A stretch of 62,022 nt of DNA, filler included, from Sphacelaria rigidula (lineage: Eukaryota), in NCBI GenBank assembly GCA_964200075.2. It is 11 parts of 11 records of this genome, joined end to end, with 100 filler letters (N's around TTAATTAATTAA, not from the genome) between each part and the next. Parts side by side here need not be neighbours in the genome. Positions count along the whole stretch, not along the records: positions 56,476 to 62,022 come from CAXNAA020026448.1; 10 more parts are not named here. One strand, written 5' to 3'. The position numbers and the translations under genes were made by a program. Below, one piece after another: positions 83-62,022 of this stretch (the stretch's first letter is position 1; every line of letters starts with the position of its first letter). The notes beneath the pieces are model-generated. The model did no database searches. It was given only the letters and a program-made list of their open reading frames with translations, and was not told the DNA's origin.

Positions 83-1286
83 ATTCTCGGGTATCTGCAA
101 AGTGAAATAAAGTGTAACGGTCACGTGGAGACGGTAATTCCGCCGCATCTGGACTCAGCTGACCCGCGGAGACGTGACATCGCTCACGCAGCACTTGATT
201 CACACACCCCTCACGGAGGGAGACGACATCATTGCTTCTACAACGACTTCTAGAGATCATGGCTTCAACCGTTGCACCATCGCGTGGTTCTACGCCGGCA
301 GCAGAATCCCCGCCCATCAACGCAAGAGGCTTCAAAGTCGTCAGTTTCATGCGGCACTCAATCGCGGTATGTACAGTACCAGGAAGTGTCTGCACTCCGT
401 TTTGTTTTGTGATGTAGACGCAGTTATATCAGCTTTTCGACCTCCAGTTCCTCGAGATGGAAAAATCTTGTATGCGATATGAGCCTCTTGAGAGATTGTT
501 CCTGACGAGAGCTGTTCGATAATGAAAGGTTCGGCATCATGAGCTCGGTGAAAACTGTCATTACAGGGGGGTGTTAAGCCCATTTTCATCGACACATTTT
601 TTTTCGGAGATTTCCGATATTTTCAGGGCTGGCAGGGTACCTGATGACTCTCGAACGCTTGCGAGGACCACGGCGTACACACACGGTAGCTCTCCCAAGT
701 GCAGCGATGCAGTCCGATTTTTCGCACTTCTCCAAAATGGAAGCTACGGAGAAAAAATGAAAAATGAAGCCGCTTCGTCTTCGGAAAAGTCTGAACGCGG
801 AGTCCGAAACTGCGAAAATCTTGGACACGTCTGAAAATATATTGTCGATACAGTGTTGAGCCTAGAAGAAAAAAAAATCTACTTCAATACACACCCAAAA
901 TGGTCGTTGAACAGGATTTGAGGTAGGACCAGCTGCGAAGGGCACGCAGTTCACACTTCACACGAGGCGCGTGCCCCAGATAAAGGTTCACCGGTCCAAC
1001 TGGGGGCATCATTGGGAATTTGTGTTCAAGGCGGGGCCGTGGATGCTATTTTGTCGCTCCAAAAATGTCAGTTCATCGCGTTCGGTGGTATCGATGCTGT
1101 TGCTCTATATTGGTTCCTTACGGCCGATGGTATGCCGATGGTGGCGGCCACGCTGTACGATCAGCACCCCCCACGGAGACCAAACAGGACGGGGATAAGA
1201 TATGAAAAATGTTCTTGTGTAACGTATGGAAGAAACGTAATGGGCACCGAGATGTTTGAGGTGTCTCTATTCGGAGTAGGAGCGGT

Positions 1287-1355
1287 GCCTCGTCTCGAAA
1301 GGAATGCGTGGTCAATGGTCAAACGACTACTGTGAAGAAGGGAACAAATGAGTAC
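1287..1355 (+). mobile_element. Degenerate copy of the poly(C)-tailed mini-element, family A
   Basis: GCCTCGTCTCGAAAGGAATGCGTGGTCAATGGTCAAACGACTAC...AACAAATGAGTAC matches the family A consensus with substitutions and indels; the C-tail is eroded. Confidence 0.75.
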
Positions 1356-4154: not shown

Positions 4155-5491
4155 AAAAAAATCCGGTCATAATCGGTTGTACTTTTTATTTAAAATTCGT
4201 CTCGTAGAGATGTTCTTATCGCAGGTGTCACGTCATTCGTGTACTTGTTTCGGGTGTACATTATTTTGACCAGGCTTTCATTCGCGTTTAAAAGGCAGCG
4301 CAACACAGTGCAGAGCCAGTGCTGGATACCGGCCGCGTACTCAAGCTAAGCCAAGTCAGCTCTGGCGTGCCGATCTTTGTGAGGTTGTTCAACTCCGGTC
4401 GCCTTGCGTAATTCACGGCAAACATGAAATCCAAAATCCATGCATTTCTCATGCTCTGTAGATCACTTGCATATATTTGTTGACCCAATAGACGCCCTCG
4501 CGCAGGAGATGCCTGCGCTTGATGTCCGTACAGTAGTATCCACAACTGGACCGCCTAGGCGCAGGCAGTACCAAAATGAGAAGAGTCAAGCGACATTTTG
4601 AGCCAATGTTATTCGACTTCTCGGACTTCAACCAAGGTGTTCAGTTGGCGAGATTCATGTAAACTTGTCAAACCTCGTGCAACAGGGTAGAACGCTCATG
4701 ATCTCAAGGTTATGCACGTCGCTTTGTAGACGTAGGAAGCGATTTATCACGAGAGTAGCAGTATCTCGCAACGCCATAGAGCTGGTCCCCGCGGGGGGGC
4801 TGATGAACACCAAAGCAGGGACACAATCTGTCTTTCCCTATCTCGCGCCACCTATTTTTTTCTCTAAAGGGTCGGTTCTAATCATTTTCACAGTCGGCCA
4901 TACTCGCTGCGTGCTCTGTTTGACCCTGAAGAAATGAGGATCAAGCGTGTAGCGTCCGGGTCAAAAAGCCGCGATATTCGTCATTATTGTACGAAAATAC
5001 AGAGGCGTTGAAATCGGCATTTATAATAAAAATGGCCAGTACAACACGGGATAATCCGGGGACCCCCCTCCCCCCCCTCCCCCCCACGCACTTTCTGGTA
5101 TGTTTTCAACGCGTAAATCCACGAAATTATTCTTGTATTATGTACTTTAGGGTGAGGAGGCGGTATTTCGAGAAAATGAAAAGAGGTGCTAACCGTACTG
5201 GCTGTATGGTACTGTATTGTCTGTACTGTGATTCGACTCGGGGTTAGAACTCGACAGCTACGCGACAAAGACCATCGCTTGATCAAGCTTGACGTTGCTG
5301 GAAAGGCTCACTGTTCTCTGATAGTCTTCGAACGCTGGTGTGGGAGCTACGCCTTGTTGGGCTGTGTCATGCTGGGTCGGAGCAACAAATATTGTATCGA
5401 AATATATCGACGGTACATCCAAAATGGGGGTGTTGGCTCTGCGTGCGGCGCTCCCTAAAATCCCCTAGGAGGGGGGGGGGAAGGGGGGGTC

Positions 5492-5548
5492 GTACTCATT
5501 TGTTGCTTGCCTTAGTCGTTCGACCATTGACCACGCATCCCTTTCGAG
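5492..5548 (-). mobile_element. Mini-element family A copy, cut by contig end
   Basis: G-run followed by GTACTCATTTGTTGCTTGCCTTAGTCGTTCGACCATTGACCACGCATCCCTTTCGAG. Confidence 0.85.
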
Positions 5549-5648
5549 NNNNNNNNNNNNNNNNNNNNNNNNNNNNNNNNNNNNNNNNNNNNTTAATTAA
5601 TTAANNNNNNNNNNNNNNNNNNNNNNNNNNNNNNNNNNNNNNNNNNNN
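5549..5648. other. Artificial contig spacer (N44-TTAATTAATTAA-N44). Same spacer at 11197-11296, 16845-16944, 22493-22592, 28141-28240, 33788-33887, 39435-39534, 45082-45181, 50729-50828, 56376-56475
   Basis: Ten 100-nt N blocks, each containing the six-frame stop linker, separate segments of exactly 5548 bp (first five) or 5547 bp (last six). Confidence 0.98.
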
Positions 5649-8595: not shown

Positions 8596-11060
8596 TCACA
8601 ATTGAATACCAAACTCACTCGTAATGCGAGCAGCAACGGCACGAGTCACGCGCAATTTACGCAACTCCTTCGTGAGAAATTCCGGAGCTGCCTCAAAAAT
8701 ATTATTGAAAGGCTCCCACGCACGCTCCTCAACTTCGAAACCAACCCAGTCGACCAACATGATCAACGAACGATCATCTGCTTCTGCCACTCGGACAATA
8801 TCAGTCATCTGAAATTGCCCCTGATTGAAAGCGCGCTGGAACACGTCCTTAACGTCAGCCGTAACATTAAGCTCGGAGTCTGCATAAAACCGCAAGCTGC
8901 ATGGGCGGTCTGAATACCACCCGAAACAATGATCTGGATCTCAAACACGTGCGGCTGGTAAGCTCCAACCACTCTTCACGGACCAGTTCACGTCGCCATC
9001 AACTTGGGCGTAACACCCGGACGACGCACGCGTGTATACAAGACATAGTTGGCTACCTCAACATTCGGCAGTTCCAACCCCGACGAGGACCCCTCACGTC
9101 TACGCGCACGTTCAGCGGCAACACATTCCTGCACTTGAACGTGGAAAGGTTCTTACAAATCCAAGACTCCTTGCAATACACTCTTAATTTGAATATCGCC
9201 CAAAACATTACACTTCCATTCCCCCGCCGACAAAGACGCCGGCGCCGAGAAAGACGTCCGAGGGGCACGACCAAACATCACGTGGTACGGCGTACTATCG
9301 TAACGACGACGATACGTCGTACTAAGTGCCCATTGCACCGCCGGCAGCACGTCCACCCACTCGGAACCCGCTCTACGCTGCTCGAGAAGAATACAGCGAA
9401 GAGCACAAACTACTTCCTTCACCATGCGTTCGCACGTGCCGTTAGACCACGGAGAATACGCTGCCGCAAACTGGTGATCAACGCGCAAAGTCTCTCGCAA
9501 TCGGGCCAAGATCGCATTTTCGAAATGCGTGGCGGTAACACTCACCCACAAACGCAGCACCCCCAAAGGTTTGCACCAATTCAGCAAAGATGCAGTGATC
9601 GATTCAGCAGCAAAACACACTTCTACTGGTTCCAGAGCCACAAAGTTGATCAAATCATCCATAATTACCTAAATGTATCGAAACCCAGCATCCTCCCACA
9701 AACCTTGGGAAGCTAGCGGGCTACTCTCGCCCACGTACAAGAAGTCAAGATGAACGACCTCATTCGGCGTGGTCCCATGGACCGTTCCGCTGAGCGGGCG
9801 GGTAACAACATCGTCCGCCCTCGAGTCAGCACAGTGAAGACACTGGCGGACAAATTTGCGCACATGAGTTTCTATCCCCTGCTAGACACAAACCTCTTGC
9901 AAGCGCACTAGCGTCGCAGCGACACCACGATGCCCGGCGTCGCGCATGTGCGCGCAAATCATCAGACGTACCTGCAACTGCTTGTCAGAACTCGGAATGC
10001 ACAAAACGTTTCGGCCACGCACATGCACACGAAACAGACCTCCATTGTCCCAGACAGCAGTACCAACGTCCGACTCGAAAGATCGCACATCCGCATCTTC
10101 GGTCCCAAGGTATTTTCGTTGCGCTTGGGGGACGAGAGATTTGGACGGCATCGAGTCATCAGGTTCACACGGACCACACACAGCCACAGCGCGCGCAGGC
10201 AAAGCCGGAGTATTCACCCAACGCGAAAGCAAGTCACCCCCACACGTTACGGTCACCCGAAATATGGCAAATCGAGTAATGGTACTGGCCAAGAACAGCT
10301 TTCCAACCTCCCAAACGTTGTTTCAATGCTTTAGACACAGACGCAACGCACGCTTCCAGGTTGAAAATATACCCGAGATTTCGGTGATCCGTGAAAATGT
10401 GCACGCCATCCCACAAAAGATTCTCCAAACGACGAAAAGTGCTTACAACAGCAAAACCTTCCTTATCAATTGTGGCCCCACGCAGCTGCGAATGCTTGAA
10501 ATTACCACTGAGGAAAGCCAGCGGTTCATGCGTCATGTCCTCAACTGGCAGGTGTCTTAGCATTCCCGCTTTAGGCACCTGCGTAATGAAACTAACCCAA
10601 TGACACTCAGATGCATCCGGAAACATTAGCACCTGACGATCAGGACGAGGATGGAACAGCGTCACGACGTGAGCCACCAGATCCTTCGCTGCCGCCCACG
10701 CTTGCAACCTACCCTCCGTTCACGATGCAGGCGGAATGGCGCGGTTTTTTGCAACACGCTTCGTCCGTTTCGCAGCACTCGCCATGAGTTCTTCGAGGAA
10801 AAAACACAAGGGAGCTACGGTTTCTGCCATACGTGGCAACGAGGTACGCAGCCAATTCACTGCCTGTAGGAATTGCATGAGTTCTGCGGCCGTCTCCGGG
10901 CGCCGCATGTCAGACAAGCCTTGAAATTTGACAGGGTCATGAGATACGCGTCCGTGTCAGTACACTTTCCCACACCATACGAGTTCACTTGCGAAGAAAG
11001 TGCATTTATGCGCCGCCGCAAACAAACCAACATTCTCTGAACGGGCCAAGACAGCATCAA
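8596..11060 (-). pseudogene. pol: Ty3/Gypsy chromovirus pol, 3' half (RT C-terminus, RNase H, integrase, chromodomain), frameshifted
   Basis: GLFAAAHKCTFF (RT); FLQAVNWLR; FPDASE, DKEGFAVV and IFTDHRNL (RNase H); H-GH-C-C zinc motif, VHLDFL and SPWSNGTCERM (integrase); LVDWVGFEVEERAWEP (chromodomain, ORF 8596-8895). Confidence 0.92.
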
Positions 11061-11947
11061 GCATGTTTAAAATTTCGTCTTCCGTATCCGCGAAAAAAAT
11101 ACATATCCCACCCATATCTTGCATTTAACAGAGGATTCTACAAAATGAGGTTCATCAATGAAATGAGGTTCGAGCCCAAAACAGTATTTTCTCCACNNNN
11201 NNNNNNNNNNNNNNNNNNNNNNNNNNNNNNNNNNNNNNNNTTAATTAATTAANNNNNNNNNNNNNNNNNNNNNNNNNNNNNNNNNNNNNNNNNNNNATAT
11301 AGAGTTTTTCCCGCCAGGTGCCTTAAGCGTATCTTAATTGGTACATTTCCCTCTAGAACTTTTTGCCACGGTTGGGTACATGTTCCATATATAATGCAGG
11401 GGCAACATCTGGGCGAACTGCAGGTGAGGCAATCGCTGAAGTATTCACCTGCAAGCTCTGCTCCAGTGCACTGTAAGTTGATATCGCGAAAAGGACACTA
11501 CCATAACCACCTTGCCGGCTTCCAGACTGTCACAGACTGTCAGGACGTATAATCCACTAGCATTGCTACTGTCTGTACGGAGGTGTTGCCCCCTTGTCAG
11601 GTACGTTTTGGAGCATGATACTCGATGTAGATCATCATTGTACATGGGCACCAAACTCTGGAGGTTCTTACTCAAGATTTCGATTTGGAGGATGATACTA
11701 GGTGGGCAGCGGCAACTGCTGTTTGTCCAGGTCCCCCTGGGAGCAGGATGCGTTTGGTGTCCGTTTGACGAAGTTACCCCCAAAGAAACGAAATCGATCG
11801 GGGCTTTAGAGTGGAAAAATCTAGCAAAAAAACTATCGCAAGAATCAGGTCGCAAGAATCCTGACGCAAAAACGGAGTCGTAAAAAAAGAGTTAGTCGAA
11901 TTTCACCTGCAGCAGAAGCCAACTTCACTTCGTGAAATTGGAACTAG

Positions 11948-15359: not shown

Positions 15360-16700
15360 GTATCACGAAAAATATATTCCGGCAGAGTTATATCTCCCAA
15401 ATCAACGGGCGCGGGGAGCCATATCGGTCAACGCTGTGTTGGATTCAGGCGCCCATTTCACGAGCGTGTCGGTGCTGATTGTGGAGTTTCTGGAGAGTCT
15501 ACTCCCTTGTAACAAATCCGCGTCCCGTTCTCGCTCGGGGCGCGGCAGGCCATCACCGCATTGGGGCAACGTGTAAATGCCACGGAGCGTACGATTCCCC
15601 TACAGTTGGCGTTCAGGACGACCTGGGGGCCAGCGAAATTACCCCCGATATCGTTTGCGATCATGCCGGGGACGGATGGTGTTGTTCTGTTCGGTTTACC
15701 GACGCTTCGGGAACTCGGAGTCGACCCGTATGATCGGTTGTTAGAGTCCCTGAAAACAAAAATGCCGGCGCCCGGTTCGAGTGTCGAGACGCCTGCTTTT
15801 TTGGCCAGTCGCAGAGTGAGCTTGTCCGTTGATGCTCTCCAGGAGGCGGAGGGGCAGGTGTCCGAGAAGCTTGATGAGGCGGTGGAACGCTTGATGAAGC
15901 GTGGCGCCGAAATGTTCATGGAGCCGGCAGAAGAGGAGTCCGCGCGAATGGCTGCGCTGGAGGAAAGCGTGACGGATGCTGTGGAAAATGGCCTCAACGT
16001 CTCAAAAGCAGAGCGCTTGCGTGGCATACTGTATCGCCACGTTAACGCGTTTCGTCGTGCGCTGAGGGGTGATCCCCCTGCGCGCGTGGAACCCATGAGA
16101 GTTACACTGAAGCCAGGGGCGGCCGCGGTGAAGGCAAAACCGAGGGGTTATGATCGGGTAGAGTCCAGTTGGTTAGCTTCTTGCATGGGAGCTCTTGTGG
16201 TGTTTGGGTTGGTATTGAGGAATCTACAGGCGGTGTGGTTCAGTCCAGCGACGGAGGTGCCGAAGAAGGACTCTTTCCGTCTTGTCAGCGATTACGGAGC
16301 CATCGATGATCAGGTGGAGAAGTCGCCGGGTGTCATGCTCAATCAGGAATCCGACATGATAGACCTGTTGAGTGCGCGATGTTTCGGTAAGTTGGACCTC
16401 CTACAGGGGTACTGGCAAATGCCGTTGGCCGAAGAGGCGCAAGAAATATTCACCATCACGACTCCGTTTGGCATGTTTACCCCGCAACGAGTACCGCAAG
16501 GCGTGTTGAATGCTACTTTCTACTTTCAAGGTGTCATGGTAGACCTTTTAGATGGCTTGAAATGCAAGATCTGGGTGGATGATGTCTTTTTCTTCGCGGA
16601 TACGGAAGACGAACTGTTGGATACGCTTGATGTAATCTTGGCTCGCTTAGAGAGTGTTGGTCTGTTTGCAGCTGCCCACAAATGTACCTTTTTTGCTACG
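15360..16700 (+). pseudogene. pol: Gypsy pol, 5' half (aspartic protease and reverse transcriptase), frameshifted and truncated
   Basis: AVLDSGAHF protease site; FRLVSDY, KLDLLQGYWQ, VPQGVLNA, IWVDD and AAHKCTFF RT motifs. Homology stops near 16700. Confidence 0.93.
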
Positions 16701-17020
16701 AGCTGGGCCAGCCCAAAAACGGATTTAAGCTCTAAAAGCAATATCTCATCGACACACACGAGTTGGGCCGTGATCCGCATATCGTGTTAATCGTCCAATC
16801 AAGGGGAAGGTGCACATCTGCTCAAAAGTTTGGGCCCATATTTTNNNNNNNNNNNNNNNNNNNNNNNNNNNNNNNNNNNNNNNNNNNNTTAATTAATTAA
16901 NNNNNNNNNNNNNNNNNNNNNNNNNNNNNNNNNNNNNNNNNNNNGGGTCTTCCGTGCAAGAGAGAAATGCCACTTCAGCCCCATATTTTGTATGAACCCC
17001 AAAATATAAAATCGGCTGCT

Positions 17021-20654: not shown

Positions 20655-22470
20655 ACGACTTCGACTTCACCCATCAAGGGCTGGTATTGTCATCACCCTC
20701 CTCCTCCGTTCGAGTCCTCTCCCGATTAAACCTCGTGATGAAGGGCAGCAACTCGGGCTGAACGCCCAACGCCGAAGACCCTACCGAGTACAGAACCGCC
20801 AAGATCACAGTGACGAAGATCACATCAGATCCCACTTCGGCCAGTGCAGCCAACTTCACCGAGTCCTTACCCAAAGACAGCTGCGCCAAGAAGGACAGCA
20901 GCGACGGCAAAAACATTGCAATGTCGATATTCACCGCCTGTCGACAGTTGAATCGCACAAGCTTGTTCACCTGATGTGTGTAATGTTTCATGCGCGCGGG
21001 AGGAGGAGAGAGAGAGAGAGGGGGGGGGGGGGGGGGGGGGTTTTTGAAGGTTGATATATTTTTATTGGGGGGGGTGAAAAGGAACAAAAAACGAAAAAAC
21101 AGAAAAAAAAAAGNNNNNNNNNNGTGGTGTGGGTGGGGCGGGGAGCAGGGGGGGTCGGGGGGTGGGGGGGGTGGGGTGCGTTGTGTGTTGGGTGATTTTT
21201 AATGGTTCAACATTATTCGATCGTGGGCTAGTAACGCAAGAACAAACGAGTAATAATGAAAAAAACGGTACGGAGAATCGAGAACGCGCTACAAACCCCA
21301 CACTGGCTCCAGACAACACCAAAGGATGCATGCAAACACGCCAGTTTCCTGTTTAAATACCCGCAGTTGCACTTGAGTCCGAACTGATTCATTCAACCTG
21401 GACCTCTTAAATATGGTGCGATGGGTGAAAAAAGAGTGAGAACAAGGTGTGGGAACAAGGCGAATCGAGTAGAGGTACTGGAGCGAGTACATTTCGAAGG
21501 ATTGGTGACATGGAGCTTATCCAGCACTTGTTGCTGGCTTCACCTCATGATTTGATTGCCCGGCCTATTGTTTGATTGATTGATTGTCGCACTCTAACTG
21601 ATCCCCCACGGGTCCAGCCGCGGTCTCATGTGAGCTCATTACTCCCTTCGTGCATACGACGATTCATCTGTGACTCATACCCATGCTATTTCTCACCACT
21701 CCTTCACCATCTCAAAGGTGAAGAATGTGCAGAGGTACTTGTTTACGTTGGGCATGATGTGAGGTGTCGTACCTAGCGCACAGTGTATACCAAATATAGC
21801 ACGGAAGCGCGTGGGACGATCCAGTATTTTCCGGACCGGTTTTGCCAAACGTACAACGGCAAGAACGGTCCAAAACCAAACTGGCGAGTCCCATTCAGAT
21901 AACGGTGGAAAAGCTCTTCAGAAGTAGTGTAGTAAATGCCAGTGGTGCCATTTCAGAGCGGACCGGACACGAAGGTTGGGCGGCGTGTAATACTGACTTG
22001 TAGATAAATGTATGGGATGATGTGCCCCATGCGGATCAGACTTCTCTACAGCCAGAATCATGGAATGTATGAAAACTCCCGCTCGCTGCCGGTGGTCTCA
22101 TGAGAGATGCAGACAGCCCTGTTTACATATCAGACCCGTCTGCTGGAGGAACATCGATTCGAAGCGTACTACACGGAAATAGGTTGTTGTCCTAGAGTAG
22201 ACGACGTGTACTACGTGCCATGCGTCGAGTATACAGCTGCCTCTCAATGCTTGATCATGCGCTGAGCTAGTGACGTACAGGAAAAGGGGACGGACGCCGT
22301 GGCCGCAGTGTCTACACAGTTACAGAGTAACGTATGGGTGACGCTTCACAATTTTGGCGTGGTGTATATGGGGTGGCTGCTCTCTCAGGTCTTGCACACC
22401 TCCCTCTCTCCCCCCCCCCCCTCTAAGAGATAGCCTGCATAGATAGCCTGGTCCGGCGAGAACCCGGCGT

Positions 22471-22492: not shown

Positions 22493-23239
22493 NNNNNNNN
22501 NNNNNNNNNNNNNNNNNNNNNNNNNNNNNNNNNNNNTTAATTAATTAANNNNNNNNNNNNNNNNNNNNNNNNNNNNNNNNNNNNNNNNNNNNGCACTGTT
22601 TTAGGCTTGAGCCTCATCTCGAAGTTAAACCTCAATTCTCACAATTTGTTGTTAAATGCTCATTTTCCCCCCTACATGATTGGTGGTCGGGATATATAAC
22701 GATGACACTGAAATCGTGTACGGTGGGAACATGCTTGCACGGCATGCCAAAACAAGAGTGTGGTGCGCAAAATTGGATATTTCCCCACATTTTCACTGTG
22801 TCATATCGAGCCTCAATTCTCGGTGAGGCTCGATTTTTGAAATTGTTCCGCGATAGGTGCGAGCTGAAGTTGGATGGCGCAGCGAACCGGCAACGAGCAC
22901 AACCCCCCGCTGCATGGACCTCTCGGTGGGCATTGGTGGAAAGAGGAAATAATGCTCCACGATGCCGACGCCCCGTCATAGCCGTAGTCCGAAACGAGGG
23001 GGGCAGGAGAGAGACGCAGACCGTTTGAAAGCAAAACGATGAGAGGGGGGGACGCAGGACGTGTTGTCATGTTGTGCTTTGATTGCGCGTGTTGAAAACA
23101 GTTGGGCAAAAAGTTTCGCTCTGCCGGTTCGCTGTTCGCTAAGTAGAATTCTGGTTGATTGACAGTAGTGTCGAGAATAATTCCTACGCCGGATCGGGAT
23201 GTAATAGTTGTATGATGTTTGACTGAAATACATTCCCTG

Positions 23240-23440
23240 TTTTTCTGTTCGGAAGATTCATGTTTCGAAGATTTGAAAATGAGGCATGTGCACCTGATGA
23301 TGCGCACGCTGTACTTCGAAAGATGAGCGTGAGGGTTTCTCTGTTTTTCTGTTTGAAAGGTTGATATCTCGGAGTTTGAAAATAGGGCATGTGCACTCGA
23401 TGATGCGCACGCTGTACTGAGAGATATGCGTGAGGGTCTT
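23240..23440. repeat. Two diverged tandem copies of a ~110-bp unit
   Basis: TTTGAAAAT..GGCATGTGCAC...GATGATGCGCACGCTGTACT...GCGTGAGGGT occurs twice. Confidence 0.85.
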
Positions 23441-25313: not shown

Positions 25314-25647
25314 TCCTCGTGTGCTACTATCAGTCCCCCTCCGACTGCTGTGCCTTCTTGTGCTACTGTCAGTGCCCCCCCGACTACTGTGTCTTCGTGT
25401 GCTTCTGTCAGTGAAACCCCGACTACTGTAGCGCAATCTGCTGCGACGGTGTCTTCGTGTGCTACTTTCAGTGCCCCCCCGACTACTGTATCTTCGCGTG
25501 ATCCTGTCAGTAACCCCCCGAGTACTATGTCTCCGCACGATGCTGTCAGTGCCTCCCCGACTACTGCGTCTTGGTGTGCTTCTGTCGGTGCAGCCCCGAC
25601 TACTGTAGCACAATCTAGTGCGACGGCGTCTTCGCGTGCTACTGTCG
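25314..25647 (+). repeat. In-frame 39-bp minisatellite (SSCATVSAPPTTV) inside Copia pol
   Basis: Seven units plus a partial one; two carry a 21-bp extension (AQSAATV, AQSSATA). Confidence 0.9.
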
Positions 25648-26838
25648 ACTCATCCAATAGTCTTCCCACAGGATTGACTGCTGTTCCAGGTTTACACTTA
25701 CCGGACCTACTGCTGTCCGAGGAGGATGAGATTGCTACGTGTAGTCACCCAGCGTTTTTCCCTCGAGTTCTAAGCCGTCACGAATTGAGTGAGGAGGAAA
25801 TTTTGGATCTGGCGCTTACAGCTATAACCCCCGGCCGTCGACCATCCACTGTCGGCAAACCCCAACAAACGTTGGACATCAACTACTTTTTCGTTTCCCT
25901 CTACCGTGCTCACAAGACCATTCTCCGAGCAACCGCCGCCCGATGGGACATTACTCTCACAGGACAGCTGGCGCCATGCGCAGGATGTGTGGAGTCAAAA
26001 GGGCGACGCGCCGCGATCCCACATTTAACTACTCACCCACGGTACTCGGCATTGTCCACCTCGACCTCGCGGGACCGCATGTGCGGACACTAGGCGGGTC
26101 ACTATACATGCTCGCCTGTGTGGATAGTAAGTCTCGTTCCATCATGCTTTGCGGCTTGGCAAGGAAGGCACACGCTTTGGCGAAGGTGAAGGGATACATG
26201 GCCGCCGTCAATCAGTTCGGTGTTCCTTGCTGCTTCCGCATCGACAACAGGGGTGAATTTCGTTCGCAAGACTTCATTTGTTTCTGCGACGAGGTACGAA
26301 TTTACCGCGAGTACACAGCGCCCGATACCCCGAAGCACAACGCTGTGGCCGAGAGCGCAATCTGGCGCATGATGAAGGCTGGCCAGGCGGCGCGATGTGA
26401 AGCTTCGCGCCTCTTCCCCGCTGAGGCCTTCACGGACATCCCCGGACTCGGTGGCACCTTGGATAGACTCCGGTTGGAGTCCGTGGCGTGGGCCGCGGAT
26501 GGCTTCAACCGCTCCACCACGATGGCCAACCCTGGGAAGGTCCCGCCATACCAGGTTTTCACCGGCCGTGCCTCTCCTCTTCAGATCGTTACCTTTCTTC
26601 AGCCTGGAATGATGAAGGTCACACGACGCTCCAAGATGGATCCGTAAGCTGCCAAGTGCTACTATCTCAACAACGGCTGCAACCATTCCTCGTCAACCGT
26701 GAAGGTCATCAAAGCCTCGACCGGCTCCGTCTGTATTACCAACAACGTGGTCGGGAAAGTGCCTCGTCTACCACTCCAACCATCAGCGCCGCCCGACGGA
26801 AGGGGGGGGGAACAAGGCAACACCGAGACTTCAGCTTC

Positions 26839-54910: not shown

Positions 54911-56868
54911 TCAGCTGCTGGGCAAATCCCGCATACTGCATCGTCACCAGCGCATGGGATCCGACATGCAGAAAAGGTTGCTGGAAGGCATTCATCCTTT
55001 CGCCCCCAGTCCGCATATACATGAGCTCAAGGATGAGTAGCTCTCTACAGCTTTCGCTGAATAGAAATCCCACACGTTGGATACGTGTGTATGTCCACAC
55101 CTGTGCTTAGTCTGAAACCCCCGGGAGGCCGTGGAGAGATGCTGGACGGTCGGGTATACCTCGTCCATGTAGCCACATTTTTTACAAAGCCCCGTATTGC
55201 GTCGTCTACCAACACGAACCATGTTTAGAAAATATCACTTCATCAATCGTATATTAATAGTATATGTAGACCATCATCACCCCAAGATATATATATATAT
55301 ATATATACTCCATATATATACCACCGTACACAAATCGAACATCAATGAACGCACCCGCCCGCACAACAGTATTATTCCGCCCGGCTATACCACCACAACC
55401 CCGCAGCAAAGAGCGCGGGTTGGGCACAGGGATATAGACACATACACACTGTCGTGCGGGTGGATATGATGTATTTCTCGTTGGTGGAAACTCGAGCACC
55501 TTCTTTCATGGTCGCGACATCGCGCGGCGACGACATATACGCGGGGTGCGTATATAGGCGCGGGTGCGAGGAACAATCATCAACCGGCCGCCTATGTTAT
55601 GCATATACACACTCACCATCATATGCATGCTGCGGACGCACCGCGATATAACATAGTGAAGCATACAGGCCGCGTACGATATGCTGCACGTTGTTCAAGT
55701 CCTTTTCACGTCGCACTGTAGGTAGAGAACATACATATACATTGCCCTGCGCTGTCTGTACTGTACTTTCCTCCTTTCCTCTCACGCCCTACTTACTGTG
55801 CTGCAGCAACTGTGCGCGCAAATATGATGTGGAGCGCGCGCGTGAGAAACTGGAGTTCGTGACGGTATATAACACCCGCCCCATATATCAAAATAAGCTG
55901 CAGGCACCTACATTGTATTTATAGCCAGCCATCTGCAGTACATGGCCCCGCACGTATAAGCACGGCGGTATAGCGCACTGTCCCGCATGCAATGGTATTG
56001 TACAGTCCAGTCAGTACAGTTTATTGGTGTGAATATATATCCCGAGTACGCAGTATCAACCGCGCGATGAGATGTTTTATTATCCCGTGTATATTGTTCT
56101 AGTTTCGTCGACGCGGGACTACGCGGTTTTCATCAGGCAGATGCATCTATCACCGAGGTCAAATGCGATCCGCTACCATGATCTCAGCTGCAACAAAAGC
56201 TTGCGTGCAGTATGTGGGACTTGAACAGCTGAAGCTGCTCGCGACCAAGTCCTTTCTCCACCCAATTTCAGGTATTCTTGGCGGTATACAAATTCCCTCT
56301 GCTACATACAGTGTATCACAGGGTTGCCAGAAAAATGAGAACGTATTTTGAAATGAGAATCCTTATGTTTTTTAANNNNNNNNNNNNNNNNNNNNNNNNN
56401 NNNNNNNNNNNNNNNNNNNTTAATTAATTAANNNNNNNNNNNNNNNNNNNNNNNNNNNNNNNNNNNNNNNNNNNNGGCCCGAAGCCTACTGATGATCTTG
56501 CATTTGGATGACAGCCTACAGTGAGTTGCTTTACAATCTGGTATCGCCACTTCCAGAGACAGTCACTGCTTATACACTGCCTCATGGGTGTTTTACCATG
56601 GGGGAAGGAGAGGGGGGTGGTGAAAACTATTTCGAGCACCAAAGTAGACGTGGTCATTGAATAAGATGTTAAGCGAAAAATCCCCAGAACAATGAGAAGG
56701 ATAGTCGGTGCTCGGCGTGGAGGCGCGAAGGGCAGAAGCGTCGTGCGGTAGGGACTAAGACCTTACTATGCTTCGAGGAGCCTTCAGTAGTGTATATGTA
56801 TTTGTTTCTTGGATTCGCGATCGTCTCCATCGATGGCAGGAAACCGACGTATTTTTTATTAGAATAAA

Positions 56869-56918
56869 AGAGAGAGAGAGGCAGAGAGAGAGAGACAGAG
56901 AGAAAGAGAGAGAGAGAG
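56869..56918. repeat. (GA)n microsatellite
   Basis: Directly visible. Confidence 0.9.
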
Positions 56919-57150
56919 TAGGTGTGGATCAGCAGCCTAGGATTTCCGCTTCCGGTTATCTTGTGTCCATCTTTGTCGTGCATTTGTAGGTTGGAATATG
57001 TGACACCACCAACATGAGCAACACGGCCCGTCGCCGTATAGATGAATCCACCCATAAACCACTCATAAACCACTCATGTATTCACTTTTGGAATCAACTG
57101 ACCAGCACCCTATTGTTGAGCGAAATATACAAAAAAGACACTAAACGCTA

Positions 57151-57260
57151 CACGCGTAGCCACTGGGGTGCCTGTAACCTCAAGTTTGGACGTTACAGAC
57201 CTTGTGCAACGTCTGTAACGTCCAAAGTTGAGATTGCAGGCACCCCAGTGGCCACCCGTG
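57151..57260. mobile_element. 110-bp fully palindromic Tc1/mariner-like MITE with TA TSD
   Basis: TA|CACGCGTAGCCACTGGGGTGCC...GGCACCCCAGTGGCCACCCGTG|TA; arms pair almost to the centre; second copy at 38272. Confidence 0.85.
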
Positions 57261-57680
57261 TAGAAATGAAATGCTAACACGTTTCGGAAGTCAATCGCGG
57301 CCGGATGAGACGCCGCTCTCTCACCCTGTGACTTTCTTCTCGAGATCTCTTCGTTGAAAGTGGCGAGCTGTTCCCGTTATGCTACCGATGCTCTGGACAT
57401 AGACATCGCTGAAAGCATGTACCCACGTACGTCTATCTGGTTGTAGCAACGGCTGGAGTCATACATCGCAGATCGACCACTCACCTGTCTGACGGCGGCC
57501 TTCGTACAGTCGTCATTTTGAGTCCATGTACACGTACGAAATGGGACCGTGTTGGAAGATGACTACGTATATTTTCCTCCTTGAATACTCCCTTACTAAA
57601 AATACCAATATCTTCAACGTGAGACAACCAATCAACCAATCAACCAACCAACCGACTGATAGACCAATCCTTGTACCCAC

Positions 57681-59870
57681 CGTCTTTTCCGAAGGTCCTC
57701 CCGAACCGTCGAGCCGCAATCCTTTTGCGATTTCGTCGCCCCCAGGCTTCGGCCATCCTGCACCTTCGCCTGTCCTCGAAAGAAAGCGAATCGCCCCAGC
57801 CGCCCAGCGCGATCGGGAGTGGCCGGTCGTTCTCCCACGCGATGTGTGTGTTGTATGCATCGAGCACCCTTTCAAATGTTGCGCCGCTGGCGCCGCCGCT
57901 ATCGATGCCGTCGAAATCCTGCGGCAACTACCAAAATGACAGACGCGGGGGGTGGGTGGGTGGGGCAGGGGGGTGCAGTCACGTTGTGAGAAGGTATTGA
58001 GTTAAAGATCCTTGGATCGGACGCGGAAGTAGTTATTTTCCTGCAAAATGTTGACTGCCTTGATTGGAACAATCTCACGGGAGGAGCTCGGGGGCGGGTG
58101 GGGTTGAGGTGGGGGCGTACTCATTTGTTGCTTGCCTCAGTCGTTTGACCATTGACCACGCATCCCTTTCGAGACGGAGCATTGTGTAGGTTGAGGTGGG
58201 GGGGGTACTCATTTGTTGCTTGCCTTAGTAGTGTAGGTTGAGGTGGGGGGGGGGGGAGACGACAGCCTGTGCCTGAGAAACTTTGCCTCATCTAGAAACC
58301 ATCAGAGGGTATGTATGTCCACCCACGTTTTGCCCAATGATTGCCGCGCACGTGAAGAACATGGCTAGCGACAGGAGCGTATTCCGCGTACGCTCACGGT
58401 AGTTACTGACAACCGCTCGCTGCACGAGTAGATGGTCGCCACGTCGCCGACTGCTTACGGTCGGGCCGCCGGCTGCTCCGGGTAGGTGGGTGGGCTAGAT
58501 ACATCCAATGCCATGTCAAACGCTTTTCGTGTACTCGTCGAACCCTTCCTGGGGTTGGTATGCGCCCTGCTTTGGTTGCGCTGTGCGTTTGTTTGCGGGT
58601 TGACTTGCCTCCACCTACGACCCGAGTGTGGGGTCGCGCATTTGACGGAGCCGCTCTGTTCCGAGGAGCGAAATGATTTAACCCAGAAATTATGCCTCAC
58701 TAGCATCTAGTGTGCTCTCATCATGCCCAGTAACGTACAACAGTGTGCATGGCCGTTTCTTTTCACTAATTGGGACTTATTCCTGGCTGTTCATACTTAG
58801 CGTATGAACGCGGCCGGCTCGCTCGGGGATGAGCTACTGCGATATGCAAACACTCAATCGATTTATTGATCAAGCTTGGTCTGTACGGTCTCTGCCTACG
58901 CGGTTGGTTCATTCGCCGCGAATCATAAGTATAAAACGAATTCCCAATCCTGTCCTGCATGTACGGTTGTTCACGCACTCGTTGCTAGTGGGTTGAACGA
59001 GCATACCTGATCCCCAACACCTCCGCCGTATATCGTCTGAAACTCCAGCGCTCGTTCCGTCGTCGCCTCTTCCCTCGCCCGCTCCATGGCACCCCAGTTT
59101 CTCCTCGAAAAGGCCTTCATCATGGGAGCCTGCTCCGCACAAGCTTGCTCGGGGTACGCTTCCAAGAACGCTACTCGTCGCGCCGCCGTCATGATTACCG
59201 CTGCCACATCGCCGTCAACCCCGTCACCCCTCCCGCCATTTCCCGAGTCCACTTCAGCTGTCGCTGTCTGCACAGCTCGGCCACCGGGCAAGTCGGACGC
59301 CAGAGAAGCCCCGCTTGTTCGGCACGCGCCCGTCAACCGTCGACCCCAGAGCGCCGTCCACGCATCGGCCAATCTCTCCTCCTCCCCGAGCGTCGTCGAT
59401 CGGAGCTGATCTTGCCTGGTAGGGATACCGGACAGCCACGCCTCTACGTGCTCGCGCATGCTCAGACATCCGAACACAGCTGTCGAGCTGGCAACCCGGC
59501 CCTGGCTCCGATCGCCGCGTACGCATTCGTCCTCCTCTGGGGGCCATAGGCCGGGGAGAAAGTAGCGCGGCCGTTGCTGTGGCGGAGATGTAAAGTTATT
59601 CGGCGGTGGCTGTGAGATATCGACGTTTTGGAACAGAGGACCGTCTCGACTGTCCGCTCTCGCGTCGCTCAGAACTTCGCGGGTGCGCTCCGCCGCTACG
59701 AACAATATTGCGCTGTTGTTGTCACCATTTTCGGCGCTGGCGGGGGAGGGGGAGAGGGAACTACGTTCAGACGGCGACGGGAGGGGGGGGGGGGGGGCAG
59801 ACGATACATACTACAGGTCATTTGGGGGGCTCCTATTGTGTATNNNNNNNNNNGGGGGTGGGTGGTCTCT

Positions 59871-59902
<32 letters not shown>

Positions 59903-60315
59903 ATGCGGGGGGGGGGGGGGGTGGGGGGGGGGGGGGGGGGGTCAGACGATACATACTACAGGTCCATTGCGTGGCTACTATGTTGCATGTGATCTCCGCC
60001 CGACGGCAGTTGAGTCGGTGGTGTAATTATGTGATCATGCAAGATGAAATGGCGAGAAGAGCAAAATATACAATGCAGTGGTTACAAATTACGCATCGGG
60101 AAAAGCCAAATAGAAAAGACATGACTCTGCACGTTGTCAGTCTATGGTCGGTTACCTGCCGTACAGAGCCTCGACGAGGTGAGCGCGGGCAGCCGCAGTG
60201 CGCCGTTGTATCGCTTCCGCCTCCCCTCTGTTCCAGTCCAGCCAAGCGCGGGCCGCCGTGCTAATCCACGTCCGCTCGTTATATACTTGCCTCAGAGCTG
60301 CCGCCGTCACTTGCA
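57681..60315 (-). CDS. Multi-exon gene of unknown function, partial (exons 60315-60156, 59760-59007, 58706-58459, 57927-57681)
   Basis: AG/GT boundaries (donors GTAACC, GTATGC, GTAAGC, GTGGGT) with intron phases 2, 0, 2 giving one open frame that includes the 244-aa ORF 58971-59705. No recognisable domain. Confidence 0.6.
58117..58229 (-). mobile_element. Full family A mini-element (58117-58181) and a 5'-truncated copy (58205-58229) in an intron
   Basis: Three copies of the target GGTTGAGGTGGGGG separate the two inserts. Confidence 0.9.
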
Positions 60316-61033
60316 CTGCAGCGGCAAACATGCATGACATAGCGGCGAGAGAGGCTTGGTTGTTGTGCGTGCATTACTCAGACGTTTGAACAAAACTGTA
60401 TCATGTGTGGTGTAGCATATATCTTCGGCGAGATGAGCACACCGGACGGGAGAATCTTCGAGGGTTTCGCTTTTGCCGTCCGGCTCCAACATGATCGTGT
60501 AGGTGACACTTGTGCCTGGTTGAGGGCATGGGTCATGCGAGAGCTTTTGCACGGCACATGGAAAGCCTTGATGTATGTTTCAGTGGCAACGTCCCAACTC
60601 CCGACGGACCCAGATCTCCATATTGCTATGGTGGGGTTGTGCCTTTCAACAGAATAATTATTCCGAACTCTCCGAAGATTCCACACCCTAGACAAAATAA
60701 GATGATCAATAGATGTAATAGGCTTATATTTTACCCGGGACATGCGCTGCTTATCGCATCTATTGACCATACCTTGTTCAGAATGTCCAAAATTCCCAAG
60801 CCAACAAAAGACATTTGAGCAACTGAGCGCTACAACGGTTTAACGTTGCTGCGGGACCTGACGAATGTATCGTCCCCTACCGTTTTGGCGATTCGTTCTT
60901 GCTATGTAGGGGGTCGGGCAAGCGTACCTGAAAAATGTACCGAGTACTGTAGATTGTTCCGAATGGACCACAGCAACGCAGCCGCATTATTCAATAGCGA
61001 TTTCTGCTAAATATGTAGTGAACTCTACCTCAC

Positions 61034-61633
61034 CGTGCAGCCGTTCACGACACGGTCATCATCCAACTCACATGAGGGGTCCGTGATGCTCCTCGTCACT
61101 ATCTCTAGCCCCAAATCACGTCGTTCGACCGCAAACACGGCTTGCTCGGCCGTATAGTGCGGGTTATCCTCGGCGAAAAGTGTGGCCCGCGCGGACTGAA
61201 CTTCATCGTAGAACACCACGGCGAAGGTTTCAGCACGGTTGATATCATGTTCGGCCTCCCATCGCATCGGAACCCCTGTTGTCGCTGCACCTACGCCGTC
61301 CCACCCGAGAACCGGTTCGTGAAGGATGTTGGGATTCGGTTCCTGAACCTCGTCGAGCGGTTCCGGAACCTGAGAAACCTGTTGTCCGTCGAGAACTGGT
61401 TCGGGAACGGGTCCTTGTCCCACACCTGGTTGGCCGTTGTCGAGAACCGGTTCCTGGAATCCCCCAGTAATCACTTCTTCAATCATGTCGGGCCCTGGTC
61501 TATCAACCGCGTCACCTGGTTCCTGGTCCTCGAAAGTCGGTTCTCCTGCGACAGCTGGTGCGGCAGCCGGTGGTTGGAGCTGTTCGACCCTCTCTGCAGA
61601 GATGCCGACTTGGTCCGGCTGCTCCGCCAATTC
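61034..61633 (-). CDS. Probable 600-nt exon encoding an acidic, Pro-rich segment with EPVL(D/G) repeats
   Basis: TAG acceptor and GTGAGG donor bound an open frame (ORF 61025-61630). Linkage to the downstream exons is not established. Confidence 0.55.
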
Positions 61634-62022
61634 CTATGGTGCCATACGCACAATATGTGTACAAATATTAGCGAGACCGTGAAACACGGGTAAGGGCCGT
61701 TTTCAAAGGGACGGTTCCGTACCGGTGTAAAAGATGCGACGGGATTTGGCGTGTGGTCGTTCGACAGTGGTGGGACTTTCATGCGAGACAGCACAAATTC
61801 TGACCTTTTACGAATTTCCTCGATTGTTCTTCGAAAGTTCGATCGTGTTTATGGGTCACATCGTTAATACGCCAGGAATACTCAGGATGTGTTTGACATG
61901 GATACGTTTCGATGACTGCTCGTCACTTCACTACCCCCCCCCCGCCCCCCCCCTCGGGTGACCCCCCCCCCCCCCCCCCCCCGCCGCCCCCCCCGCACCC
62001 GCCCCCCCGCGGTCACGGCGCG

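Follow-up and report, generated by a model that had tools for sequence, protein, structure and literature searches.

Target-primed reverse transcription by L1 and Alu elements works with a poly(A) tail and a T-rich nick site, and 5' truncation of the new copies is common. The target site duplications (TSDs) of these elements begin with the base of the tail, and new copies land in older tails and TSDs, giving head-to-tail clusters. Microsatellite-specific elements of the R1 and R4 clades also exist. Here we describe a locus of Sphacelaria rigidula at which two short pieces of a long interspersed nuclear element (LINE) with a C-tail, probably inserted one after the other, lie at the same tract of Gs. 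The locus, 58102-58256, is part of a stretch of 62,022 nt from assembly GCA_964200075.2, hereafter the window, which consists of 11 pieces of 5547-5548 nt with 100-nt linkers of the form N44-TTAATTAATTAA-N44 between them (5549-5648, 11197-11296, then every 5648 nt). The nested insertions are contained in the last piece, 56476-62022 (CAXNAA020026448.1).

C-tailed elements have been described from Ectocarpus. In the entries of its repeat catalogue, the RTE-X LINEs RTEX-1_Ec32 and RTEX-2_Ec32 are given as 'single EN-RT ORF; (C)n 3'' (an endonuclease-reverse transcriptase open reading frame), with a TSD that is 'C-rich' (PMC12477816). The same catalogue holds short derivatives, RTEX-N1_Ec32 of 604-607 bp, which 'can be present in tandem', and RTEX-N2_Ec32 of 188 bp, both sharing the 3' 60-100 bp; the short derivatives reach thousands of copies and are frequently 5'-truncated (PMC12477816). 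Its entries for other LINE clades end in (CAA)n, as do RTE-1_Ec32 and RTE-2_Ec32, or in (CA)n, as does CRE-1_Ec32 (PMC12477816). A further repeat, 'Sower', is mentioned in the genome literature as the most abundant unclassified Ectocarpus repeat, in a passage that gives no sequence for it (PMC3145265). A search of the literature found no paper pairing 'poly C tail' with 'retrotransposon'.

Anatomy of the nested insertions

The locus opens on the plus strand with a 14-nt target sequence, GGTTGAGGTGGGGG (58102-58115), exact copies of which recur at 58189 and 58236; three copies in the whole window compare with 0.05 expected. Directly behind it stands the first insertion (58116-58181, minus strand), made up of a C at 58116 and a 65-nt copy of the 3' end of the LINE (GTACTC...GGAGCA, 58117-58181). 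The sense strand of the element is the minus strand of the window across the locus, and the C is the complement of the terminal G present in most copies (sense ...GAGTACG). Blastn, tblastn and alignment agree on this piece: it is 96% identical to positions 4528-4601 of the LINE introduced below, matches residues 1362-1382 of its protein, and carries the codons of the final 20 residues together with the stop. At its 5' junction lie 7 filler nt, TTGTGTA (58182-58188), which match neither the LINE, which would read CCGTTCC here, nor the sequence upstream of 58102.

The second insertion sits inside the downstream flank of the first. A 21-nt target copy, GTGTAGGTTGAGGT plus 7 Gs (58184-58204), encloses the downstream member of the 14-nt duplication (58189-58202) and takes in five of the 7 filler nt (GTGTA), which were thereby duplicated. 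Then comes a 25-nt, 5'-truncated copy of the LINE (58205-58229, minus strand; GTACTCATTTGTTGCTTGCCTTAGT; LINE positions 4568-4602 by blastn), which keeps the GTACTC (3') end, is without the terminal G, and has the family-majority T at 58226. A single A at 58230, filler or a mismatch to the C of the family, forms its 5' junction. The downstream copy of the 21-nt TSD (58231-58251) follows, and the 5 leftover Gs of the original G-run bring the segment 58231-58256 to GTGTAGGTTGAGGT plus 12 Gs (58245-58256). A repeat search found 58184-58205 and 58231-58252 to be 100% identical over 22 nt, and 58111-58144 and 58199-58232 to be 91% identical; the 18-mer GTGTAGGTTGAGGTGGGG of the 21-nt repeat has 2 copies in the window against 0.08 expected. 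The original prediction from this sequence, of a full-length and a truncated mini-element with a triplicated target and a 20-bp TSD on the short copy, placed the targets and both element copies correctly to the base. Its target copies need one correction: the second and third are identical over 21 nt, and the first shares only 14 nt with them, not 20. The sequence GGTTGAGGT followed by the G-run would be the form of the target with neither insertion.

The parent element and its polarity

Exact searches of public collections with the mini-element returned one contig from a metagenome-assembled genome (MAG) labelled bacterial and three metagenome contigs. In all four, which come from other assemblies, a common longer sequence goes on past ...GGAGCACCG, and C/G runs adjoin the 3' end of the element there (L001-L004) as they do in the copies of the window. 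The MAG behind L001 (G001) holds only 1 copy, so the contig is taken as a stray in it. Evidence for the frame of the LINE comes from the whole MAG contig (L006, 5259 nt), that is, from another assembly rather than from the window. The opposite strand of L006 encodes one frame of 1382 aa, in which an endonuclease domain of the AP type (Exo_endo_phos, residues 193-415, E 8.1e-11) lies upstream of a reverse transcriptase (RVT_1, residues 763-1012, E 6.7e-32). The frame ends in ...KASNK with a TGA stop 4 nt before the last base of the element, and G and 13 Cs come next. No second sense-strand frame of 100 aa or more lies upstream of it within L006, and the length of the LINE, at least 4.15 kb, is a lower bound.

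The mini-element is the coding 3' terminus of this LINE of at least 4.15 kb with a single EN-RT frame, and not a full element; the C-tail is its 3' end. Because the frame runs toward the C-run and stops 4 nt before it, polarity is fixed independently of the argument from truncation. The term full-length in the original prediction therefore has to be given up, the 65-nt copy being only the tail of a much longer LINE or a tail-only derivative of it, while the proposed origin by retrotransposition gains from the finding that the 65 nt end a LINE with endonuclease and reverse-transcriptase domains. The polarity proposed there, with the C-tail at the 3' end, is upheld by the position of the stop codon and by the end that the uncut copies keep.

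The family appears to be an RTE-X-like LINE, to judge from its one EN-RT frame, the near absence of a 3' untranslated region and the (C)n tail. Its protein is most similar, among named relatives, to unnamed proteins of Ectocarpus sp. CCAP 1310/34 (48-71% identity), which have the C-terminal motif NAPS..G.VVNG in common with it; judged by these relatives, the host is probably a brown alga or something close to one. The internal RNA polymerase III promoter of classical short interspersed nuclear elements (SINEs), derived from tRNA, 7SL or 5S RNA, is not present, the 65 nt being wholly LINE coding sequence. ARAGORN found no tRNA-like gene and Rfam no family at the gathering threshold in the window, and with 0 matches from each the unit lacks a head derived from a tRNA or an RNA family. 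When folded as RNA, the sense 3' end (106 nt; -29.7 kcal/mol, z -0.55) does no better than shuffled sequences; it contains a hairpin of 6 bp, with the 5' end of the unit (TGCTCC) as its 3' arm, which we note as an idea only. Scans of viral contigs with two DNA patterns and one protein query gave no match. Upstream of the LINE frame, L006 also carries a diverged, antisense, tail-like fragment (…ATTGACCGACCACACGACCAAAGAGACGGAGCACC) at 4740-4790, about 470-520 of the reverse complement.

Order of insertion and proposed mechanism

The 65-nt copy was inserted first and the 25-nt copy second, into the downstream duplicate of the G-run. Only this order fits, because the GTGTA filler precedes the second and third target copies and not the first. 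The two copies differ at 2 of the 26 positions that can be compared (58116/58204 and 58138/58226): the long copy has a C before GTACTC and a C at 58138, the short copy no such C and a T at 58226. In four sequencing runs T makes up 88-93% of summed depth at 58138 and is the family majority; the copy at 42477 again has the C. Since the short copy has the family-majority base that is absent from its neighbour, a separate RNA template is favoured, as far as these bases can tell. The original prediction of two insertions at the same G-tract agrees with both the nesting of the TSDs, which fits one order, and the differences between the copies.

How could two pieces of one element come to lie in a single tract? 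We consider it quite probable that two successive target-primed reverse transcriptions inserted 3' pieces from a single LINE family at one shared G/C tract. The endonuclease would nick the G-rich strand within or after the G-run, and the Gs thus exposed would anneal to the RNA's C-tail and start off the cDNA, the 3' end of the G-run at 58102-58115 serving as the putative primer. The plus strand of the window would then be the cDNA itself, reading primer Gs, an optional C and GTACTC..., and a staggered second nick would create the target duplication. In the first event 65 nt would have been copied, with a 14-nt TSD (GGTTGAGGTGGGGG), 7 filler nt at the 5' junction and duplication of the G-run. 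The second event would have struck the downstream copy of the G-run; 25 nt would have been copied before the 5' junction was sealed, and 21 nt duplicated, including 5 filler nt. On this analysis, priming from the G-run and the positions of the nicks are what the arrangement suggests, and the 25-nt length would have arisen at insertion, not by later deletion.

A single insertion elsewhere in the window serves as a reference for this layout. At 36218-36310 (minus strand), the 10-nt TSD TCCTGGGGGG (36218-36227) is followed by 5 Gs and a C, a 65-nt copy (36234-36298) and a second TCCTGGGGGG (36301-36310). The extra Gs between TSD and element suggest that the C-tail is templated beyond the target. 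Polyadenylation cannot make a C-tail, so it must presumably be templated from the source copy or made by slippage of the reverse transcriptase.

Copies in the window and in sequencing runs

Within about 61 kb, 13 LINE-derived pieces were found, all 3'-terminal (11 by blastn with a tblastn check, the subfamily-B and cut copies by their flanks and alignment). The original prediction, that truncated copies would retain the GTACTC end, holds throughout the window: this end is present in 12 of the 12 copies whose 3' side is uncut, a small sample. One piece is about 186 nt long, six are 65-73 nt (36234, 42393, 42477, 42638, 50728 and 58117) and one is 25 nt; the other five are cut by piece ends or a gap, and four LINE-tail copies end exactly at piece ends (5548, 39535, 45182 and 50728). 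The 21-nt start of the element has 7 matches in the window against 0.00 expected, and the G-run plus GTACTCAT has 8. TSDs are 10 nt long at 36218/36301, 14 nt at 58102/58189 and 21 nt at 58184/58231, so the expectation that copies carry TSDs is borne out at these three. A shared 3' end with variable 5' truncation, and TSDs of variable length on individual copies, are traits of LINE membership that are found here.

The longest piece is an older 3' fragment of about 186 nt (1170-1355, plus strand), 80% identical over LINE 4424-4592 and matching residues 1325-1377. The copy at 5492-5548 (minus strand) is cut by a piece end and has seven Gs, then TC, before GTACTC. Also cut by a piece end is the copy at 39535-39588 (plus strand), whose 3' end is followed on that strand by a run of 14 Cs. 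Three copies in the same orientation are clustered at 42393-42708 (minus strand): the first, of the diverged subfamily B (42393-42465, 80% identical to the LINE), passes directly into G7AGGC and a younger copy (42477-42541, 91%), and the third (42638-42705/8, 88%) stands after a 31-G compound run. The subfamily-B signature, GTACTCATGATC.TGCATGCC..., recurs in a copy cut by a piece end (45182-45249, plus strand; identified by blastn, flanks and alignment). At 50670-50728 (plus strand) the 3' end is cut by a piece end, and at the 5' end CCG-GTG, shared with the 42638 copy, is followed by a G-run. A possible third form, GTACTTAGGATTTTGCATGCC (45012-45057), lies after a run of 19 Gs (44994-45012); it is a diverged candidate outside the count of 13.

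Parts of the window occur in 12 sequencing runs, none of them recorded as RNA, and four of these (X1-X4, from two studies) were examined as Logan contigs. The element is a very abundant repeat. Its bins have a summed depth of about 1.9-21 million and the flanks one of about 12-130, figures that are not a copy number, and 18,845-47,198 contigs were aligned per run. The repeat breaks short-read assemblies, and the Logan contigs of all four runs stop there. X2 (study P2) reproduces the left flank as far as 58115, and all four runs of both studies the right flank from 58245-58261; the flank contigs come in two haplotype-like versions. Among 15 of the 47 joints, six are head-to-tail units that go back 65-72 nt (58181 to 58111, for example, in 43, 32, 33 and 16 contigs of X1-X4), seven are copies cut 18-56 nt from the GTACTC end that are followed by a G-run and the next copy, and two are a unit followed by a G-run; no unit without the GTACTC end was seen among them.

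Weighing the alternatives

Several observations weigh against two target-primed insertions as the history of this locus. Among the contigs listed for X1-X4, none bridges 58116-58244, and the assembly there is unconfirmed; the joints derive from repeats in a metagenome-type assembly and can mislead, and the same 15 of 47 include no empty-site joint, no empty-site allele having been seen. TSDs are not universal: the complete copies at 42393 and 42638 have no clear one, and neither has the full-length LINE of L006, whose 3' flank shares no k-mer of at least 8 nt with the upstream region. No source for the 7 filler nt at the first 5' junction was found in the LINE or in the sequence upstream of 58102. 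The Gs of tail and target are indistinguishable, so that priming from the G-run is something we infer. Two differences over 26 positions are statistically weak as a sign of independent origin. The putative membership in RTE-X is based on shared features and the Ectocarpus proteins, and not by comparison with the RTEX consensus sequences.

Might the short copy instead be the remnant of a longer one? An insertion of about 65 nt has the higher prior, as lengths of 65-73 nt are found in 6 of the 8 copies whose 5' junction can be seen, and a deletion that began behind ...TTAGT and stopped short of the final A of ...GGAGCA would give exactly the observed TTAGT-A-GTGTAGG. The ends of the supposed deletion are without microhomology, however, and variable 5' truncation does occur, other copies, in contigs from other places in the same genome or genomes, being cut at 18, 23, 33, 36, 40, 42 and 56 nt, each then followed by a G-run. 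The flanking 21-nt repeats are still identical, and the event is therefore young, with little time for a second mutation. We hold a later internal deletion to be very improbable. The G-rich, repeat-dense sequence of 58102-58256, in which a period-47 unit is present 1.5 times, also brings to mind a local DNA duplication, in which template switching or slippage copied the G-run, 25 nt of element and the target with no second retrotransposition; related elements in the Ectocarpus catalogue are, by its entries, able to occur in tandem (PMC12477816). Yet in the supposed template the copied pieces lie apart, with 42 nt of element and TT between them, and two switches are therefore needed. The short copy also departs from its neighbour, with the family-majority base at 58226 versus 58138 and no C before GTACTC, and the layout of repeat, insert and repeat, with the insert adjoining the G-run, is that of the single insertion at 36218-36310. 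Such a duplication strikes us as very unlikely.

An assembly artefact would make the real locus a single copy, or a different order, through mis-threading of an abundant repeat or merging of alleles. The element is enormously repeated, as judged by contig depths that are not a copy number, the same piece has a 10-N scaffold gap at 59844-59853, and the two haplotype-like versions of the flanks and the lack of a bridging contig fit such an error. The junctions ...GGAGCATTGTGTAGG... and ...CCTTAGTAGTGTAGG..., on the other hand, are unique; an assembler could hardly invent them, so reads must presumably contain them, and in combination with the flank junctions essentially one path appears to fit. 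The structure is 149 nt long, within reach of a single read, and its flanks are reproduced, the left in X2 and the right in all four runs. We give an artefact only a very slim chance, and two successive target-primed insertions remain the history that we prefer.

A tail-only retroposon?

The distribution of 5' ends raises a separate question. Of the 8 visible 5' junctions, 6 lie no more than 9 nt apart, and random truncation along a 4-kb template would presumably not look like this. One tentative and, in our judgement, rather unlikely answer is that the 65-73-nt unit propagates itself as a 'tail-only' retroposon, consisting of the last ~20 codons, stop codon and C-tail of its LINE. Such a unit would, if this doubtful proposal held, be more than the debris of random truncation, without promoter or foreign head, and no described SINE would be as short. 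A C-run may bound it at either end; the upstream C-run of the source copy would then be transcribed into a G-run at the end of the cDNA, and this G-run would anneal to the C-run of the target.

The copies at 42638-42708 and 50670-50728 have a common non-LINE 5' continuation, GGAGCACCG-GTG (CCG-GTG), followed by G-rich sequence, and may mark a self-propagating subfamily of about 71 nt, as their shared 5' sequence would suggest. The same continuation recurs in run X1, where a plurality of 735 loose contig ends go on after 58181 with CCGGTGGG. The window has 43 runs of at least 7 Gs or Cs, where base composition predicts about 5.6, and 6 of them adjoin GTACTCAT; long ones lie at 21020-21040, 42607-42638, 44994-45012, 59871-59941 and 61934-62008.

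Surrounding sequence

Beyond the LINE tails, the window has a eukaryotic look, with many microsatellites, and a Pfam search of 106 reading frames found only LTR-element domains and one kinesin exon. The LTR-retroelement-type domains (RVT_1, RT_RNaseH and rve) lie at 15561-16790 (plus), 10237-10719 (minus) and 25793-26644 (plus) and are unrelated to the LINE. The reverse-transcriptase frame at 15561-16790+ was considered as a partner of the LINE and ruled out, given its lack of similarity to the LINE protein (best E 0.64) and its LTR-type look. A match to a kinesin motor domain (47503-48090, plus strand, E 2.4e-13) marks the one clear exon of a host gene. Tandem repeats of period 39/138 (25317-25607) and of period 103 (23233-23437) lie inside or adjoin long reading frames, and 10-N scaffold gaps occur at 21114, 42545 and 59844.

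A second repeat adjoining a G-run was noticed at 59783-59843 and 59923-59990, where G15 or G19 is followed by (T)CAGACGATACATACTACAGGTC. It flanks the 10-N gap at 59844 on both sides, with a 71-nt G-rich run between, and is either another C-tailed family or a duplicate made at the gap. The flank after 58256 was also tried as the start of a second G-run family and rejected, with no real similarity found.

Comparison with known elements and implications

The LINE behind this locus resembles the RTE-X LINEs of Ectocarpus, as the catalogue's entries describe them, in its single EN-RT frame, (C)n 3' end and C-rich TSDs, the TSDs here ending in a G-run. Like the cataloged RTEX-N1 and RTEX-N2, it has short derivatives that carry the 3' end of the LINE, occur in tandem and are 5'-truncated. 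It differs in host and in family, with protein identity of at most 71%. Compared with RTEX-N2 as entered at 188 bp, the dominant unit here is 65-73 nt, purely the coding 3' end of the LINE and without a foreign 5' head. Abundance also looks far higher than that of the Ectocarpus RTEX elements, although summed depth is only a rough indication. Similarity to L1 and Alu lies in the pairing of a homopolymer tail with a complementary homopolymer at the nick; the homopolymer is C/G and not A/T, and the LINE is of another clade, with one reading frame. With LINEs that end in simple repeats, the family shares an RNA 3' repeat that matches the target repeat, so that insertion regenerates and duplicates the target. 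Here, in contrast to those LINEs, the repeat is of a single base, and targets with as few as 5-6 Gs are used, not only long arrays.

C-tailed RTE-X LINEs are already catalogued for Ectocarpus, and relative to those entries the locus adds no new principle. It is a clean natural record of a C-tailed LINE at work, with both primer G-run and tail placed as target-primed reverse transcription would have them. Because each insertion duplicates the G-run that attracts the next, the process would account for the clusters and for the excess of G and C homopolymers in this genome. The point worth pursuing is the apparently discrete and extremely abundant 65-73-nt tail-only unit. Should this unit prove self-propagating, which we hold to be the less probable outcome, a discrete unit would be regenerated at each insertion, building head-to-tail arrays and seeding poly-G/C tracts genome-wide in roughly 10^5 copies.

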